64,000 bases of DNA from Deltaproteobacteria bacterium RBG_16_64_85. GTDB taxonomy: Bacteria > Desulfobacterota > Deferrimicrobia > Deferrimicrobiales > Deferrimicrobiaceae. Every line of letters starts with the position of its first letter. Within the stretch, counting starts at the first letter, position 1. Positions 5,776 to 36,653 of the stretch are shown here, piece by piece. The DNA lies in contig MGQW01000011.1 in NCBI GenBank assembly GCA_001798885.1, forward strand, positions 44,953 through 108,952, written 5' to 3'. The notes beneath the pieces were generated by a model, which saw nothing but the letters and a program-made list of their open reading frames with translations, was not told the origin of the DNA and searched no databases. A program made the position numbers and the translations under genes.

Positions 5776-6465
5776 ATGGATAGGAACAAGGTGGAAAACT
5801 ATCGCCTCTCGCTCTTCGGGCGGATGGTGATGGGAGTTTCGCACGAGGTCGACAACTACCTGAGCGTCATCCTCGGCTTCTCTGAACTGATCCAGATCTC
5901 GGGCGGAGGCGAGAAGAAGACGCTGGACAGTGTCGGCAAGATCCTCAACGCGGGGGAAAAGATCAACAGCCTCATCCGGTATTTCTCCCAATACGTCCGT
6001 CCCCACGATCCCGTCCGAGAGCGGTTCTCACCCGCGGAGGCGCTGCGGGAAAGTCTCGTTTTCTCCCGCTACGACCTGGGGCGGAACAACGTGGCCCTGG
6101 CCTTGCCGGAAAATTTCCCCCGGGGTCTTATAACCGCCGACCGCAGGGATTTTGCCCTTGCCTTGCTCGCCCTGATGTTCAACGGGTCGGAGGCGATGGC
6201 GCCTGGAGGGGGGACTCTCCGACTGGAGGTTTCCCTGCGGGATGGGGGGTGGGAATTCGCCGTGACCGATGAGGGGCCGGGAATTCCCCCCGAGATCGCC
6301 CAGCGGATCTTCGAGGAGGGTTTCACGACGAAGAAAGGGTCTCTACACGCCGGCATGGGTCTCCCCCTTGCGCGGTACCTGGCGGCGGAAATGGGAGGGA
6401 CGGTCTCCGTGGCCAATCCGCCGACGGGCGGCTGCGAGGCCGTTCTCAGGATCCCCGGGAACTGA
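5776..6465 (+). CDS. Small cytoplasmic sensor-less histidine kinase (DHp + HATPase_c only)
   Basis: H-box 'GVSHEVDNYLSVI' and G-boxes 'DEGPGIP' / 'GMGLPLA'. 229 aa, with no TM or sensor domain, 19 nt after the GGDEF gene. Confidence 0.75.
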   Translation: MDRNKVENYRLSLFGRMVMGVSHEVDNYLSVILGFSELIQISGGGEKKTLDSVGKILNAGEKINSLIRYFSQYVRPHDPVRERFSPAEALRESLVFSRYDLGRNNVALALPENFPRGLITADRRDFALALLALMFNGSEAMAPGGGTLRLEVSLRDGGWEFAVTDEGPGIPPEIAQRIFEEGFTTKKGSLHAGMGLPLARYLAAEMGGTVSVANPPTGGCEAVLRIPGN

Positions 6466-6506
6466 AACCCCCGGGAGAAAAGAAGGGAGCGACCGTTGTT
6501 CTGGTC

Positions 6507-6848
6507 ATGCATCCCGCGGCGACGGGAGAATCCCTGGAATGCGGCTGCTGCAGACGGAGGTATACCGTGAAGAAAATCGGCATGCAGATCCGCGACAAGG
6601 TGCTCCTCTACGGAACCATCTGCCCGGAGTGCGTCCTTCGGGGTCCGAAAGGAGCTGCCAAAAGACTGAACGATCGGCTCCTGGCCCGGATGGACGAACC
6701 GTCGGGCGCGTTGCGGCGAAGCGGCTGGAAGAAGATCGGCAGACTTCAAGTGCTGACGGCCCTGAAAGTGGCGGCCCTGGAGGAGACCGATTCGTTTCCG
6801 CTGGAGGCCAGGCAGGCCGCCGTAAGGGAGTTGAGGGAAAAGAGATAG
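6507..6848 (+). CDS. Hypothetical small Cys-containing protein (CGCC…CPEC, possible zinc ribbon); the true start may be the internal Met (MQIRDK…)
   Basis: ORF with an RBS-like 'AGAAGGGAG' upstream. I could not recognise a conserved domain. Confidence 0.3.
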   Translation: MHPAATGESLECGCCRRRYTVKKIGMQIRDKVLLYGTICPECVLRGPKGAAKRLNDRLLARMDEPSGALRRSGWKKIGRLQVLTALKVAALEETDSFPLEARQAAVRELREKR

Positions 6849-6974
6849 ACCGAAGAGGAAATTTCCCGTAAGTATCCCAATCGATAACCGATCGGTCACT
6901 TCCTGGTCGAGGACTTTACCCTGGGGGTGATTCTCTGCCACCCGGATTGCAATTCATGGAGAGAAAGGCTTGCG

Positions 6975-7757
6975 ATGAATCGACTCCTCCGAGTATTTCT
7001 TGGCCTGGTCCTGTTGTCCTTCCCCCTCGGACAGCAATGTCTCGCGGATGAAGTCTCGTCGATTTCCCGGGCGCTCGAAACCGTTAAAACGGACATCGGG
7101 AATTTTTATCTGGATCGCACGAACCTGATCGTGCTGGGGATCGGACTCGGAGGCGCAGCGATCGTCGCCAATACGGCGATCGATCGGGAGATCCGCGACA
7201 AGTACCAGGAAAACATTCGAAGCAAAGGAACGGACGATGCGGGGAAAATTTTCAAGGTGCCTGGAACCGCGCTTGTTGCCGTACCGGTCTACATCGGCAC
7301 CTATGGAACCGGCTTGTTGCTTCGAAATCCGACGGTGGAGGAATGGGCTCAAAAATCGTTCAGGGCGACAGTTGTTGGCGCCCCTGCTCTCTTGTTCTTC
7401 CAGGAGGCAACAGGGGCAGACCGGCCGACAGAGGGAGATTCCCATTGGAGGCCGTTTCGCAATTCGCATGGGGCCAGCGGTCACGCGTTCATTGGCGGTA
7501 TCCCATTTATCACTGCCGCGAAGATGAGCGAAAACACCTATAGGAAGGGGGTCTTTTACGGGCTGTCGACTTTGGCGGGGATGTCCCGGATCAACGACGA
7601 CGAGCACTATTTTTCCCAGGCGGCATTGGGGTGGTATCTTGCATATTTGAGCAGCGCCGCTGTCGAAAAGGGAGATGATCGGCGGGAAGGAAAGATACAT
7701 GTCGGGATTATTCCCGTCTCGAAGGGCGTGGCGTTCACTGCTCAAAAAAACTGGTAA
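6975..7757 (+). CDS. Secreted PAP2 (phosphatidic acid phosphatase type 2 / haloperoxidase)-like protein with a degenerate catalytic motif
   Basis: Signal peptide 'MNRLLRVFLGLVLLSFPLG'. Motifs RP…ASGH…SRx5Hx3Q resemble the PAP2 signature KX6RP-PSGH-SRX5HX3D, but the Lys and the final Asp (->Gln) are missing. GC content and GC3 are clearly lower than in neighbouring genes. Confidence 0.5.
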   Translation: MNRLLRVFLGLVLLSFPLGQQCLADEVSSISRALETVKTDIGNFYLDRTNLIVLGIGLGGAAIVANTAIDREIRDKYQENIRSKGTDDAGKIFKVPGTALVAVPVYIGTYGTGLLLRNPTVEEWAQKSFRATVVGAPALLFFQEATGADRPTEGDSHWRPFRNSHGASGHAFIGGIPFITAAKMSENTYRKGVFYGLSTLAGMSRINDDEHYFSQAALGWYLAYLSSAAVEKGDDRREGKIHVGIIPVSKGVAFTAQKNW

Positions 7758-7777
7758 ATCGAAAACCCCGGAATCCT

Positions 7778-7798
7778 TGGTGCCGAAGGGGGGATTTG
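7778..7798. repeat. 21-bp direct repeat identical to the 3' end of tRNA-Leu (att-like half-site)
   Basis: TGGTGCCGAAGGGGGGATTTG at 7778-7798 is identical to 7954-7974 (the tRNA 3' end, including the CCA complement). A degenerate third copy (GACCGAAGAGGAAATTTCC) lies at 6848-6866. Confidence 0.55.
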
Positions 7799-7953
7799 CC
7801 CGATGAGCCTCGTGCGATCTCGCACTTACCCCTCCGGAGATAGCGAGCGGGGTACCCCAGGGAGCGCACTTCGTCCGGGAGTGGGGCTGGCCTCACGGCA
7901 GCTCGCGTTCAAATCCCCAGTAATGGCAATGGTTGTGGGATAAAGCCTGGTTG

Positions 7954-8040
7954 TGGTGCCGAAGGGGGGATTTGAACCCCCACGTGGTTGCCCACACTAG
8001 ACCCTGAATCTAGCGCGTCTGCCAGTTCCGCCACTTCGGC
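7954..8040 (-). tRNA. tRNA-Leu (anticodon CAG), type II with a long variable arm
   Basis: Reverse complement reads GCCGAAGUGGCGGAACUGGCAGACGCGCUAGAUUCAGGGUCUAG…GGGGGUUCAAAUCCCCCCUUCGGCACCA. It has a 7-bp acceptor stem, anticodon loop UUCAGGG, a T-loop, and a CCA end, and is very similar to E. coli tRNA-Leu(CAG). Confidence 0.9.
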
Positions 8041-8102
8041 ACTCGAACCGCGGACATAGGATTATAGCAAATCGCTATCCGTGTTTACCGGCAAAATGTA
8101 GG

Positions 8103-10358
8103 ATGAAAGGGATGCAATTGAAGAATAAGGAATACTGGGAGGAATGGCTCCGGCGGAACGCCGAAGCCCTTCGCGCCACGGTTTCCAACGTCCATGACTG
8201 GTACAGGCTTGCGGGTGTTTCCAAGGGGGAGCGCCGGCTGTTCCGGGGCGCGCTGAAAAGCGTGGGCGAAGGGTACGGCCGGCGGGGGAAGGGGAAGTTC
8301 CGGCGCAGCCCCGCGCCGGAAGACTCCGGGCGGCCTGAAACCCCGTACCGCGCCCCTTCCCGCCCGGGGGAAAAGGAGCACGCCGGGCCCGTCCGGGAGG
8401 GACGCCTGCGATTTACGCGCGAGGGGAGACCCCTCGTCATTCCCGATGCTCCCGACGAGCCGGCGATCCGCATCCCCGGTCATGCACTCTCGGGCGCCTG
8501 GCCCAAGGACCGTGTCCGTGTCCGGCTGGAGCGTCGAAGGGGCGGCGCCCCCCCCTACGGGCGGATCGTACAGGTCCTGGAGCGAGGGATCCGCGCCTTC
8601 GTGGGAAGGTACTCCCCGATCGGCGAGCGGGCGTTCATCCGGTTCAGGGACCGCGAGGCAGACCTTCACCTTCCCGTGACGATTCCCCATGCCTTGAAAC
8701 CTGGGCCGGGGGATCTGGTCCTCGCGGAAATCGACCGGTACCCGGGCAGAGGGGACGAGGGGCGGGCCCGGATCCTCCGTGTCCTCGGGAAGGACCACAC
8801 CATGGAGACGATCTTTCTCGCCGTCTCTTGTGCGCGGGACCTGCCCGTGGAGTTCTCGGACGGGGCGCTTCGGGGAGCGGAGGAGATCCCGCAGACGGTC
8901 CGGTTCCCCGGCGAGCGCCAGGGGGAAGGCGGGAGGTGGGACGGCCTCCAGCGGATCGACCAGCGGGCCCTTCCTTACGTTACCATCGACGGTGAAGATG
9001 CGCGCGACTTCGACGACGCCGTCTGTCTCGTGGAGGAGCGCGGGCGTACTCGTCTTCTCGTGGCCATCGCGGACGTCTCCCATTACGTAACGATCGGGTC
9101 GAAGATCGACCGTGACGCCTACGCGCGTGGCACCAGCGTCTATTTCCCGGATCGAGCCGTCCCGATGCTTCCCACCGCGCTCTCGGAGGGGGTTTGCAGC
9201 CTGAAACCGGGGGTCAACCGCTTCACGATGACCGTGGAGATACCTCTCGATCCGCAGTGCCGTCCCGGCCGGGCTTCCTTCTATCCCTCCGTCATCCGGA
9301 GCCGCGCAAGGCTAACCTACGAAGAGGTCCACGCATTTTTCGGCGGTTCTTCGCCACGCCTCGGGAGGGGGAAGATCTCCCCGGACGTCGGGGAGATGCT
9401 TCGGCGGATGGAGATCGCGGCCGGCCGGCTGACCCTCGCCCGCATGGACCGCGGGGCGCTCGACTTCGACCTTCCCGAGGCAAAGGTCGTGGTGGACGGC
9501 GGCCTTCCCGTGAAGGTGGAGGCGGTCCCCCGCCGGGAGTCCCACCGGCTCATCGAAGAGTTCATGCTGGTTGCGAACGCCGCAGTGGCGGAGTTCCTCT
9601 CGGAGAAGGGACTCACGTTCCTGTCCCGAATCCACGAGCCTCCGACCGAAGATCGGATGGAAGAGTTCGAGGAGACCGCCGCACGGTTGCTTCGGCGGGT
9701 GAAGGCCGTCGAACGTCGCGACGTCTCTTCCCGTCTGCAGGGCTGGGCAGAGGCTGCCCGCGGGGGAAAATACGAGAAAACCATCAACCTTTTGATGCTG
9801 CGCAGCTTGATGCTGGCGCGATACGACCCCGAGCAGCTGGGTCATTTCGGGCTGGCGCTGTCCCGGTATACGCATTTTACCTCTCCCATCCGCCGGTACC
9901 CCGACCTGATCGTCCACCGGGTGCTCAGGGCCGCGCTGGGAGAGAAGAGCCTGTCTGCCTACGCCGCGGCGCTCAAGGAAAAGGGGGACGAGATCGGCCG
10001 GCACATGAGCGCCCGGGAGCGGGCAGCAATGGACGCGGAGCGCGATGTCGAGCAACGCGCCAAGGCGCTCTATCTTTCGACGAGGGTGGGGGAAACCTTC
10101 ACCGGAGTGATCTCCTCCATCCTGGCCTTCGGGTTCTTCGTCGAACTCGTCGAATGCTATGCGGAGGGATTCATCCATATCTCCACGCTTCGGGATGACG
10201 ATTACCGGTATTCCGGGGATCGCGGGGAGTGGGTTGGCGCTCTCCGGAAAACCCGGTTTTCCCTTGGGGACCGGCTCCGGGTGAGGGTCCGGCGCGCCGA
10301 CGTGGACCGAGGCGAAATCGACCTTGTTTTCATTGAAAAACTGCCGGATTCCTCCTAG
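8103..10358 (+). CDS. rnr: Ribonuclease R (RNB family 3'-5' exoribonuclease with C-terminal S1 domain)
   Basis: RNB signature '…HFGLALSRYTHFTSPIRRYPDLIVHRVL', a cold-shock/OB N-terminal region, and a C-terminal S1 domain. 751 aa. Confidence 0.9.
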   Translation: MKGMQLKNKEYWEEWLRRNAEALRATVSNVHDWYRLAGVSKGERRLFRGALKSVGEGYGRRGKGKFRRSPAPEDSGRPETPYRAPSRPGEKEHAGPVREGRLRFTREGRPLVIPDAPDEPAIRIPGHALSGAWPKDRVRVRLERRRGGAPPYGRIVQVLERGIRAFVGRYSPIGERAFIRFRDREADLHLPVTIPHALKPGPGDLVLAEIDRYPGRGDEGRARILRVLGKDHTMETIFLAVSCARDLPVEFSDGALRGAEEIPQTVRFPGERQGEGGRWDGLQRIDQRALPYVTIDGEDARDFDDAVCLVEERGRTRLLVAIADVSHYVTIGSKIDRDAYARGTSVYFPDRAVPMLPTALSEGVCSLKPGVNRFTMTVEIPLDPQCRPGRASFYPSVIRSRARLTYEEVHAFFGGSSPRLGRGKISPDVGEMLRRMEIAAGRLTLARMDRGALDFDLPEAKVVVDGGLPVKVEAVPRRESHRLIEEFMLVANAAVAEFLSEKGLTFLSRIHEPPTEDRMEEFEETAARLLRRVKAVERRDVSSRLQGWAEAARGGKYEKTINLLMLRSLMLARYDPEQLGHFGLALSRYTHFTSPIRRYPDLIVHRVLRAALGEKSLSAYAAALKEKGDEIGRHMSARERAAMDAERDVEQRAKALYLSTRVGETFTGVISSILAFGFFVELVECYAEGFIHISTLRDDDYRYSGDRGEWVGALRKTRFSLGDRLRVRVRRADVDRGEIDLVFIEKLPDSS

Positions 10359-35247: not shown

Positions 35248-35318
35248 AACCGACGTCGATGGGGAGGAGCCGCCGTTCATCGGGGAGCGACGTGGTCGCG
35301 CCGGCTCACGCTCACACG

Positions 35319-36653
35319 ATGCCAGGTGTCACTGCGCCGGCCGCCTCGGGGCCTGCCGCGCTCGCCGTCGCTCGCGCTTTTCCTCCCTATCCGGTCGGCG
35401 GCCCCTCGGAGCTCGAACCCTCCCCCCGTAACCGTAGGGTCGGGCTCTCGCTCCTTCTCTTTTCCGTTGGGGTCGCTTTCCTTTTCGGAGGGTGCGCCGG
35501 CGCGCCGCCGCGTGCGAAGCTGCCTCCCGCCCCCCCGCCGGCAGTCCCCCCTCCGCCGGTTCCACGGCCGCAGGCGCCGCTCCCGTACGTTCACACGGAG
35601 TCCGCGTCCGTACGCCCCGTGCGCGTTCTTCTGGGAGGGACGCAAAAGGAGCTTTCGGTCACGGGGGAATCGATCCGGGCCTGGAGCTTCGCCGGAGCCC
35701 TGGTGGCCGAGGGAAACGGGGCGGTGAACCTTTCCGTACGCGGCGAGAAGATCCTGTGGAGCGGATGGAAAACGCTTTCCTCGCCGATCGACATCGCCTC
35801 GCCTTCCGGTTTGCGGCTCGGCGGGAAACAGCTCGTCGGAAGGATCCGGGTTTCGGCCCACAAGGGTCAGCTGCTGGCCGTGGCGGTCGTCCCGTTGGAG
35901 GAGTACGTCACGGCGGTCGTCAGCCGGGAAGCCCCCCCGTCCTTCCATCCGGAGGCGCTCTCCGCCCTGGCGGTGGCGGTGCGGACCTACGTCCTGATGG
36001 CGATGGAGAAGCCGCGCGATCCCACCCACGATGTCGCCGCAGGGGTGGAAGATCAGGTCTTCGAGGGAATGGACAACGTCGCGGAGGTCTTCCGGAAGGC
36101 GGCCGGCTCGACGAGAGGCGAGGTCCTCGCCTTTCAGGGGGCTCTCGCGCGCGCGGCGTATCATTCCACCTGCGGGGGAAGGACCGAAACCGCGAAGGGC
36201 GCCTGGGGGACCGACGTGCCGTATCTGCAATCCATTACGTGCGATGACTGCCGGGACAGCCCCGCGTTCCGTTGGGATTACCGGATGACGGCGAAAGAGG
36301 GGAAGCGGATTGCGCATTCGCTGGGAGTGAGAGCGATCGACGACCTGAGGATCGAAGTCGCGGGGCGCACCTCCACGGGCCGCGCGCTCCGTGTGCGGCT
36401 TTCCTCGGGAAGGGTTTCCCGGGAGGTTTCCGCCGCCGTATTCCGGCGGGAGGCCGGTTACGCCCGTGTCAAAAGCCTGAAGATGGAAATCGTTCCGGTA
36501 GGGAACGGGTGGGTGTTCGCGGGGCAGGGGTACGGCCACGGCGTGGGAATGTGCCAGTGGGGGGCCGACGGCATGGCCAAGAGCGGGAAGGCGTACCGGG
36601 AGATCCTGACGCGTTATTACCCGGAGACCGCTCTTGCCCGGAGCTCCCCCTGA
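35319..36653 (+). CDS. SpoIID/LytB domain protein (amidase enhancer-like) with a lipoprotein-type signal
   Basis: C-terminal 'YHSTCGGRTE…GHGVGMCQWGA' is the SpoIID/LytB signature. N-terminal 'LLLFSVGVAFLFGGCAG'. Confidence 0.75.
   Translation: MPGVTAPAASGPAALAVARAFPPYPVGGPSELEPSPRNRRVGLSLLLFSVGVAFLFGGCAGAPPRAKLPPAPPPAVPPPPVPRPQAPLPYVHTESASVRPVRVLLGGTQKELSVTGESIRAWSFAGALVAEGNGAVNLSVRGEKILWSGWKTLSSPIDIASPSGLRLGGKQLVGRIRVSAHKGQLLAVAVVPLEEYVTAVVSREAPPSFHPEALSALAVAVRTYVLMAMEKPRDPTHDVAAGVEDQVFEGMDNVAEVFRKAAGSTRGEVLAFQGALARAAYHSTCGGRTETAKGAWGTDVPYLQSITCDDCRDSPAFRWDYRMTAKEGKRIAHSLGVRAIDDLRIEVAGRTSTGRALRVRLSSGRVSREVSAAVFRREAGYARVKSLKMEIVPVGNGWVFAGQGYGHGVGMCQWGADGMAKSGKAYREILTRYYPETALARSSP

Follow-up and report, generated by a model that had tools for sequence, protein, structure and literature searches.

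A family of folded, gene-less and apparently mobile DNA units at the 3′ end of tRNA-Leu(CAG) in Deferrimicrobiaceae

The DNA analyzed here, a stretch of 64,000 nt from Deltaproteobacteria bacterium RBG_16_64_85 (contig MGQW01000011.1, positions 44,953 to 108,952; below, the window), contains an intact tRNA-Leu(CAG) gene and, 155 nt away from it, a second copy of the last 21 nt of that gene. The 155-bp insert between the two copies belongs to a previously undescribed family of folded, gene-less DNA elements that are apparently mobile; its sequence marks it as a diverged member of this family and not as random debris. We consider it rather probable that the two 21-mers are the junctions of a structured mini-element of 155 bp, devoid of genes, that was inserted site-specifically at the 3′ end of tRNA-Leu(CAG). 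A sequence-only reading of the same DNA had taken the insert for what remained after an integrase and most of a mobile element had been lost. That interpretation was not supported, since the insert is a complete member of a widespread family of gene-less units with fixed ends and a conserved structure. The locus is composed as follows.

7954-8040, minus strand: tRNA-Leu(CAG), intact, with encoded CCA (ARAGORN; Rfam RF00005, 53.6 bits).
7778-7798, plus strand: distal 21-mer, which repeats the tRNA-Leu 3′ end at a displaced position and forms both an attR-like junction and the unit's left terminal repeat.
7799-7953, no strand assigned: interior of the miniature structured unit (matches model R1 and folds; no open reading frame [ORF] and no Rfam family).
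7788-7798 paired with 7910-7919: closing helix P1.
7812-7825: hairpin GTGCGA..TCGCAC.
7826-7887: Y module.
7908-7919: inverted, tRNA-end-like right terminus GTTCAAATCCCC.
7920-7953: spacer.
Unit edges: on the left TGGTGCCGAAGGGGGGATTTG and then CCCGATGAG; on the right, ending at 7953, ..GCCTGGTTG.
Junction expected of an empty site, 7777 joined to 7975 onwards: ..CCTTGGTGCCGAAGGGGGGATTTGAACCCCC.

Exact copies of the 21-mer TGGTGCCGAAGGGGGGATTTG occur in the window at 7778-7798 and 7954-7974 only, separated by 155 nt, and no third site with three or fewer mismatches was found there (chance expectation, 0). Both the coordinates and the sequence that the sequence-only reading had given for this direct repeat were reproduced. 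The proximal copy is the 3′ end, encoded CCA included, of the minus-strand tRNA gene, and the identity between the distal copy and the tRNA stops between ..GATTTG and AACCCCC, within the T loop. The locus thus combines an intact tRNA gene (7954-8040) with a cognate 3′ fragment in direct orientation (7778-7798) whose edge lies in the T-stem region, as at tRNA-targeted islands. The proposed attL/attR-type form of the duplication was borne out; crossovers in tRNA genes commonly fall at either of two locations, of which the T-stem region is one. A promoter and terminator scan of 6400-8300 returned nothing that reached the criteria; an extended -10 element (TGCTATAAT) upstream of the tRNA gene was seen by eye only.

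Membership of the insert in a family was established with the covariance model R1, which matched the window at 7778-7932 (58.1 bits, E value of 1e-11 to 1e-12). The units of this family are noncoding and range from 131 to 342 nt. Their left end is fixed, with the 21-mer (invariant in 27/27 core-type units) followed by MCCG, while their right end is inverted and resembles the tRNA end. It is a perfect inverted copy of the 21-mer in L063, L045, L089, L024, and L055 (L numbers designate the related loci or contigs, about 110 in all, that were compared with the window) and is degenerate in most copies; the window retains only its inner 9 to 11 nt (GGGGATTTG/CAAATCCCC). Optional modules sit in the loops, and the 60-nt Y module is represented by 27 distinct copies, that of the window and 26 others. 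The window unit has kept P1, the hairpin, the Y module, and the right end and has lost the three-way junction; its ends match the CCCGATGAG..GCTCGC subfamily. At L095 (6790-7120, minus orientation), an extra module of about 150 nt forms a long hairpin (CAGTGCCTCAATTCACAAATACGGTC ... GACCGTATTTGTGAACTGAGACACTCG); the family therefore takes more module types than Y, W, and Z. Rfam 15 gave no match to the units in searches of the region and 13 related loci at an E value of ≤1 and of the whole window at the gathering thresholds, the tRNA being the only match in the window. The idea that the Y module is a genome-wide repeat was rejected, as the window has a single copy and additional copies at other loci are parts of further units. 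Hammerhead, twister, and other ribozymes, considered by eye for the Y and W modules, were without Rfam support, and peptide coding was rejected by eye because neither start codons nor reading frames are conserved and the lengths of indels are not multiples of three.

The distribution of the units was followed in two censuses. Seeding with the junction (21-mer plus MCCG) recovered 58 metagenome loci, nearly all of them arranged in the order flank, 21-mer, unit (150 to 340 nt), optional terminator, tRNA-Leu. Seeding with the tRNA body, which is not biased toward the unit, recovered 36 loci from Deferrimicrobiaceae-type metagenome-assembled genomes (MAGs); a full unit was present in about 14 of these and a remnant in about 4 to 6, and the rest had none. 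As far as sampled, the family is confined to the Deferrimicrobiaceae. Occupied and empty alleles differ by exactly the unit, the spacer, and one 21-mer, in four unrelated types of left flank:

Flank 1, stop codon of a kinase (HATPase) gene: empty in L079; occupied in L078, L033, and L060.
Flank 2, stop codon of a zinc-ribbon gene: empty in L109; occupied in L081.
Flank 3, GGGATGTACGCCGTAAAA: empty in L093; occupied in L075, L047, and L043.
Flank 4, island end GYAACCCCTTG..: empty in L076, L096, L100, and L108; occupied in L011, L020, L024, and L087.

The breakpoints between presence and absence fall at the repeats (L109/L081, L079/L078, L093/L075, and L096 and L076/L011 and L020). Both alleles were found in one assembly in the case of L081 and L109, two MEGAHIT k141 contigs of a single MAG (DASWBR01, SMAG_U2687): L081 reads zinc-ribbon stop codon, 21-mer, unit, terminator, tRNA, and L109 reads zinc-ribbon stop codon, tRNA. 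Since these contigs were assembled at k141, a mis-join through the 21-nt repeat is impossible, and one single-nucleotide polymorphism in their flanks suggests two coexisting strains. One flank type can hold units of different subfamilies, and units have been eroded by deletions in L083, L084, L085, L094, and L102. Synteny and typical composition of the repeat and a nearby PAP2-like gene among relatives had been named beforehand as an argument against a mobile element, and this applies in part. The repeat is indeed a shared syntenic feature of many related genomes, but it is polymorphic there and therefore supports mobility instead of refuting it.

The fold that was tested comprises the closing helix P1 (the inner 21-mer and the inverted CAAATCCCC right end), the hairpin, and the three-way junction Pa-Pb-Pc. 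Two alignments were used, one of 27 core-type units without extra modules and one of 53 units aligned to R1, and both supported the fold by compensatory changes:

Standard-pair cells: 96.4% (27 core-type units); 95.3% (53 units).
Pairs changed on both sides: 12 (27 core-type units); 13 (53 units).
Covariation score: 0.259 (27 core-type units); 0.270 (53 units).
Covariation in shuffles: 0.075 (27 core-type units); 0.086 (53 units); 0/500 shuffles reach the real score in each.
Slid controls: ≤0.093 (27 core-type units); ≤0.068 (53 units).

Changes on both sides were present in 133 cells of the 53-unit alignment. Wobble pairs were not decisive as to the strand, with 20 G·U on the plus strand, 10 on the minus strand, and 54 other mismatches in 1363 cells. 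The folding energy slightly favored the minus strand for core-type units and strongly favored the plus strand for module-bearing units (Wilcoxon p of 0.38 overall), a strand difference for which G+U composition could account. The fold may serve the DNA itself while the unit moves, it may belong to an RNA that derives from the tRNA trailer and ends in a tRNA mimic, or it may be selected as a stable barrier that works in both directions between convergent genes; units often lie behind a terminator and have no conserved promoter, which weakens the simple reading as an RNA gene.

Close relatives of the window show how the units turn over. The flanks of the window, which include a PAP2-like gene to the left of the distal 21-mer, are 92 to 96% identical to L011 and 87 to 90% identical to L012 (PAP2 identity of 94% and 87%, respectively). 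In the unit interior, the first 108 of the 155 nt are unmatched in L011, and nothing matches in L012. Judged by its ends, the window unit is of a different subfamily from the units of these closest relatives and thus arrived or was replaced recently. The order in L012 is PAP2, 21-mer, unit, minus-strand terminator hairpin, tRNA. In L011, 3.5 kb separate PAP2 from the RNase R gene, and after PAP2 come a tRNA-end fragment that is longer but decayed, genes for a lipoprotein and a YkuD protein, two tandem units, a 51-nt tRNA-Leu fragment that ends in the anticodon loop (anticodon class), PhdYeFM/ParE, a third unit, and the tRNA. The tandem consists of two 177-bp units at 6617-6971, with one 21-mer starting each, and the three units are 86 to 92% alike, as distant from one another as from the units of other genomes. 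The cargo of L011 (4835-7959) encodes a coiled-coil lipoprotein, a LysM/YkuD L,D-transpeptidase, and a PhdYeFM/ParE toxin-antitoxin pair, all with a GC content of 0.57 to 0.59. The decayed fragment of L011 occupies the position at which the window has its 21-mer; hence, the common ancestor of the two probably had PAP2 adjoining the tRNA and no unit.

A search with R1 with the filters off found two unit copies in the 64 kb, the second of which lies far from the tRNA gene:

35291-35440, plus strand: unit core (three-way junction Pa-Pb-Pc plus tRNA-like right end), a 150-nt in-frame insertion (R1 match at 35349-35404, 36 bits, E value of 2e-7).

This copy is without 21-mers. It is situated in the N-terminal part of a gene for a SpoIID-like lipoprotein (ATG at 35259), where it separates the charged n-region of the signal peptide from its hydrophobic core. 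It is missing from L111 and L112, relatives at 89 to 91%, and is present twice in tandem, 150 nt each and in frame, in the 97% relative L110 (2852-3151). Spread of the core module thus need not involve the tRNA site. A P1-like pairing at the second copy (GGGGAGG/CCTCCCC) was dismissed as a coincidence because its left arm is the gene start and is also found at empty sites.

To the left of the distal 21-mer, the window contains an older islet with the following parts.

6507-6848, plus strand: 113-aa zinc-ribbon-like gene (ORF), conserved backbone; its stop codon is the ancestral junction with the tRNA 3′ end.
6849-6868, plus strand: decayed 21-mer relic ACCGAAGAGGAAATTTCCCG, left border of the PAP2 islet (position and 13/17 match).
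6869-6974, plus strand: AT-rich leader of the PAP2 islet, GC content of 0.516 (87% identity to L011; partly conserved in L012).
6975-7757, plus strand: secreted PAP2-like gene, cargo of the older islet (Pfam PF01569, signal-peptide-like N terminus).

The left border had been described as a degenerate third copy of the repeat with 14/17 matches. We found that CCGAAGAGGAAATTTCC at 6850-6866 matches CCGAAGGGGGGATTTGC on the same strand at 13/17 positions, and such a match alone is at chance level (about 2.9 sites per shuffled window). In the real window, it is the only site of this grade besides the two true 21-mers, and it stands directly after the zinc-ribbon stop codon, where about 5e-4 chance sites are expected within ±10 nt. 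The same zinc-ribbon C terminus (..RE.RERR and stop) is followed within 2 to 4 nt by the 21-mer in L086, L065, L032, L081, L038, and L030 and by the tRNA itself in L109; the ACCGAAGAGGAAATTTCCCG relic at this stop codon is also present in L011. By its position, the third copy is thus a credible relic of a 21-mer, which gives the window the order zinc-ribbon gene, relic, PAP2 islet, 21-mer, unit, tRNA.

The PAP2 assignment itself is barely over the gathering cutoff of PF01569 (27.7 versus 27.2 bits); by eye, the protein shows the motifs ..RP.., ASGH, and SRx5Hx3Q, with the last Asp of the canonical motif replaced. Homologues numbered 326, several of them named PAP2 phosphatase. The identical protein is encoded on more than 20 metagenome contigs, with the same synteny throughout (TamB, BamA, GAF-GGDEF, histidine-kinase-like, zinc-ribbon, PAP2, tRNA-Leu, RNase R, response regulator, ValRS). 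Homologues are annotated as Candidatus Deferrimicrobium or Deferrimicrobiaceae, and a slipin encoded elsewhere in the window is 100% identical to a protein of Deltaproteobacteria bacterium RBG_16_64_85. With a GC content of 0.553 and a third-position GC content (GC3) of 0.640, compared to 0.62 to 0.66 and 0.76 to 0.85 for the neighboring genes, the PAP2 gene is the window minimum (about -3.6 standard deviations), and the region just upstream (6849-6974) has a GC content of 0.516. The low GC content claimed for this gene was therefore confirmed by computation. As a sign of foreign origin, it held only in part: the gene is atypical in the window, but homologues with 65 to 71% identity in a tRNA-free context (DUF3943-PAP2-hypothetical) are likewise 3 to 6 GC points under their neighbors, so that low GC is partly a family trait and, alone, weak evidence. 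Outside the window clade (L014, 2588-5630; L015, 2311-5546), PAP2 homologues always have DUF3943 before them and a hypothetical protein of 256 to 276 aa after them. This arrangement suggests that the solitary PAP2 gene of the window was detached from a three-gene envelope module, DUF3943-PAP2-hypothetical. On the other side of the tRNA, the RNase R gene starts (window 8103-8500) with a basic N-terminal extension of about 130 aa that is very GC rich (up to 0.73); a mir-1225-like Rfam match within it (8269-8358; E value of 0.033, far under gathering) is most likely an artifact of a GC-rich hairpin.

Comparison of the tRNA-Leu locus in related genomes, which the sequence-only reading had proposed as a check, shows the 3′ end of tRNA-Leu(CAG) to be a strain-variable insertion hot spot in the Deferrimicrobiaceae. 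The variable slot extends from the kinase or zinc-ribbon genes to the 21-mer, and its content differs by genome: nothing in L060, small secreted proteins in L024, PAP2 in the window clade only, a tyrosine integrase in L020 (Pfam, 1.4e-15) that ends 28 nt from the 21-mer, and elsewhere large islands with methylase/helicase-like, HicB-like, and ORF6N-like genes (translations judged by eye). Searches by tblastn located full copies of the L020 integrase in L020 and L027 only, with fragments in L061, L040, and L108; no family member encodes a recombinase. In L031 (10997-13856), a 2.9-kb islet extends from a decayed 21-mer to the intact tRNA, with the unit displaced to its left. Its ORF translations, inspected by eye for an integrase, gave none and only uncharacterized ORFs, among them a 344-aa ORF that by eye resembles a HEPN-type defense protein. 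Matches to the int-alpA RNA (RF02996) were observed in L057 (552-620 and 895-960, both minus strand) and L023 (1728-1793, minus strand), in island DNA left of the 21-mer and not in the unit; one is above gathering (43.3 versus 35.8 bits), and the hosts are outside the proteobacteria in which the motif was described.

From the repeat anatomy, family membership, conserved fold, occupied/empty polymorphism, subtype turnover, and relic position described above, we infer a recombinase mechanism, an order of events, and a crossover position. The unit would have entered by site-specific recombination at the 3′ end of tRNA-Leu(CAG), in the T-stem-region class. As it would carry its own copy of the tRNA end, the tRNA would stay intact and the displaced copy would become the distal repeat at 7778-7798. 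Since no member encodes a recombinase, movement would occur in trans, presumably through the tyrosine integrase of a co-resident island, similar to cis-mobilizable elements (CIMEs). PAP2 would have come first, in the islet now bounded by the relic at 6849-6868, and the mini-element later, between PAP2 and the tRNA; the two successive events postulated in the sequence-only reading fit the data. The crossover would lie within positions 1 to 11 of the 21-mer, its acceptor half, because under the integration model L012 combines a distal 21-mer at the family consensus with a resident tRNA that has a compensated T-stem change.

Several observations weigh against this scenario. Neither an excised circle nor an attP junction was found, a junction scan of viral contigs giving 0 matches, and a circle of 176 bp is very small for duplex recombination. 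No integrase lies in or near the insert: 7799-7953 has no ORF, 6869-7777 holds PAP2 alone, and a tblastn search with one query, the L020 integrase, found no homologue in the 64-kb window. Kilobase cargo is usually distal to the unit, not between the unit and the tRNA (exception, L031), so that either units would have to reinsert repeatedly once the tRNA is regenerated or the distal 21-mer would have to serve as the target. Homologous loss between the 21-mers would also leave precise empty sites, a passive att-flanked remnant should not retain a covarying fold, and the core module at a non-tRNA site without 21-mers calls for another mechanism of movement.

We therefore weighed site-specific insertion against other explanations. 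That the insert is the plain decay remnant of an ordinary tRNA-integrated island, with no identity or function of its own, was the view of the sequence-only reading. Direct repeats of a tRNA 3′ end without an ORF between them, the presence in relatives of larger islands and of an integrase at this site, and the eroded units listed above all agree with it. We nevertheless find it quite unlikely, as a bounded unit with a covarying fold recurs in dozens of genomes, occurs in tandem, takes modular inserts, and differs in subtype between close relatives, and no larger parent with the halves of the unit around genes was found in the roughly 110 loci. Even less can be said for a tandem tRNA-Leu pseudogene, with the distal 21-mer as all that survives of a duplicated gene. 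In its favor, the repeat copies the 3′ end of this very tRNA in direct orientation at a distance of 176 bp. However, tRNA similarity is limited to these 3′ 21 nt and ends at the T loop, the adjacent 155 nt are unit sequence, the unit exceeds a tRNA in length and folds differently, and ARAGORN and Rfam both detect one tRNA only; this explanation was effectively ruled out and has next to no probability. A miniature repeat driven by a transposase, of the miniature inverted-repeat transposable element (MITE) or repetitive extragenic palindromic (REP) type, would have the 21-mer and its inverted partner as its own terminal inverted repeats and would adjoin tRNA-Leu by chance, the direct repeat then consisting of one element end and one tRNA end without any target duplication. 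The loci with a perfect inverted right end, the nested hairpin modules, and the second core copy at a non-tRNA site, which is missing from relatives and in tandem in L110, speak for such an origin. Because the right repeat is degenerate in most copies, target-site duplications are not consistent, nearly all full copies sit at one locus (with two copies in 64 kb), the gene-bearing islets at the locus (L031 and the PAP2 islet) are also bounded by 21-mers, and the non-tRNA copy lacks the 21-mer, we hold it to be decidedly improbable.

A chromosomal noncoding RNA gene is likewise unlikely, although a conserved fold with compensatory changes is what it would predict. The unit would then be transcribed as the 3′ external spacer of tRNA-Leu on the minus strand, or as the 3′ untranslated region or terminator of the convergent plus-strand gene, and the 21-mer would be a mimic of the tRNA acceptor/T arm for RNA-end processing and not a recombination scar. 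Cotranscription is plausible in the window, where the tRNA and the unit have no terminator between them; folded as the minus strand, the window unit has a z score of -2.4, the minus-strand unit ends in ..CUUCGGCACCA, which can pair with a 5′ GCCGAAG in some copies (L063, L045, and L089), and module-bearing units fold 8 to 25 kcal/mol better on the plus strand. However, a minus-strand terminator hairpin separates many units from the tRNA (L012, L021, L047, and others), no promoter is conserved on either strand, and the upstream flanks are unrelated between genomes. In addition, G·U pairs are rare (the 20 and 10 counted above against 54 other mismatches), unlike in typical RNAs, and make no choice of strand, and the unit is dispensable, polymorphic, and without an Rfam match. 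By analogy with the attC sites of integrons or with CTX-phage attP in its folded form, the unit could also be a structure-specific recombination site in the form of folded single-stranded DNA, with tRNA-Leu(CAG) anchoring an integron-like cassette platform. Paired inverted tRNA-end copies would then mimic, as a duplex, the final 21 bp of tRNA-Leu, and a tyrosine recombinase would insert unit-tagged cassettes beside the tRNA, among them PAP2, toxin-antitoxin pairs, and defense genes. We rate this as a long shot, and site-specific insertion of a mini-element, with movement in trans, is the explanation that we prefer.

Insertion at tRNA genes is textbook knowledge, and bare tRNA-end repeats are normally taken as a scar; here, the gap between them holds a conserved folded element. 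The family recurs in a poorly known phylum (Deferrimicrobiota, formerly MBNT15); its units change more quickly than the DNA on either side and form the edge of a hot spot for cargo. If the units are moved in trans, they would be among the smallest integrative elements known, with selection acting on shape and not on genes. If they act as folded single-stranded DNA, structure-specific recombination would extend beyond integrons, and if they act as RNA, they would form a new class of tRNA-linked RNAs with a tRNA-mimic end. In any case, R1 lets annotators recognize these loci and flag adjacent genes, such as this PAP2 gene, as accessory.

Among known systems, functional RNAs can derive from 3′ external transcribed spacers (3′ETS) of tRNAs, an example being 3′ETS-leuZ of E. 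coli. Similarly, the unit lies directly downstream of tRNA-Leu and in the window is probably cotranscribed with it; in contrast, it is much longer, is often separated by a terminator, and is polymorphic in presence. MITE, REP, BOX, and Rickettsia palindromic elements (RPE) are small, noncoding, hairpin-rich, and modular, and RPE insert in frame in protein-coding genes. The units share these four properties, and one copy is in frame in a protein gene. They differ in their low copy number (two in 64 kb, not many dispersed copies), restriction to one tRNA, lack of a regular or fixed target-site duplication and of a transposase, and a left end formed by the 3′ end of a tRNA. The attC sites of integrons and the folded CTX-phage attP are single-stranded, structure-specific recombination sites; attC sites measure 57 to 141 nt and have the end boxes RYYYAAC and GTTRRRY. 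As in attC sites, structure is conserved more than sequence in the units, length and center are variable, the inverted ends could rebuild a target duplex in a single strand, and arrays of alternating cargo and units lie by a fixed anchor (L011, L031, and L055). Identity with attC was rejected, since the end boxes fail (from ..GGATTTGMCCG, the left box is ATTTGMC and the right box GTTCAAATCC, with C at position 4), the units are 131 to 342 nt long, and no attI or integron integrase was seen, the window having been searched with one integrase query. The anchor also differs, being a tRNA gene here, with a 21-nt direct repeat for each unit.

The closest parallels are found among elements integrated at tRNA genes. 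Tyrosine integrases insert genomic islands in tRNA genes (Reiter 1989; Williams 2002), and the crossover classes tabulated for such islands in Islander are the T stem and the anticodon (PMC4383910). This locus shares with them the intact tRNA with a displaced 3′ fragment, the boundary in the T-stem region, and, in relatives, 51-nt anticodon fragments, tandem accretion, variable cargo (toxin-antitoxin, defense-like genes, methylase/helicase-like ORFs), and, in L020, an integrase by the repeat. The 155-bp insert departs from them in having no gene at all, so that the integrase filter of Islander would reject it, and in belonging to a conserved folded family. CIMEs are att-flanked elements without integration and transfer genes that undergo accretion with incoming elements (PMC5704250). 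The same logic of accretion applies to the units, which have att-like repeats (in the window, two exact 21-mers with no ORF between them), encode no recombinase, and stand in tandem at a tRNA 3′ end. CIMEs, however, are decayed integrative and conjugative or integrative and mobilizable elements, usually of kilobase size and without sequence identity across species, whereas the units, for which no such parent was found in the roughly 110 loci, keep the same ends and a covarying fold across a bacterial family within 150 to 340 nt.

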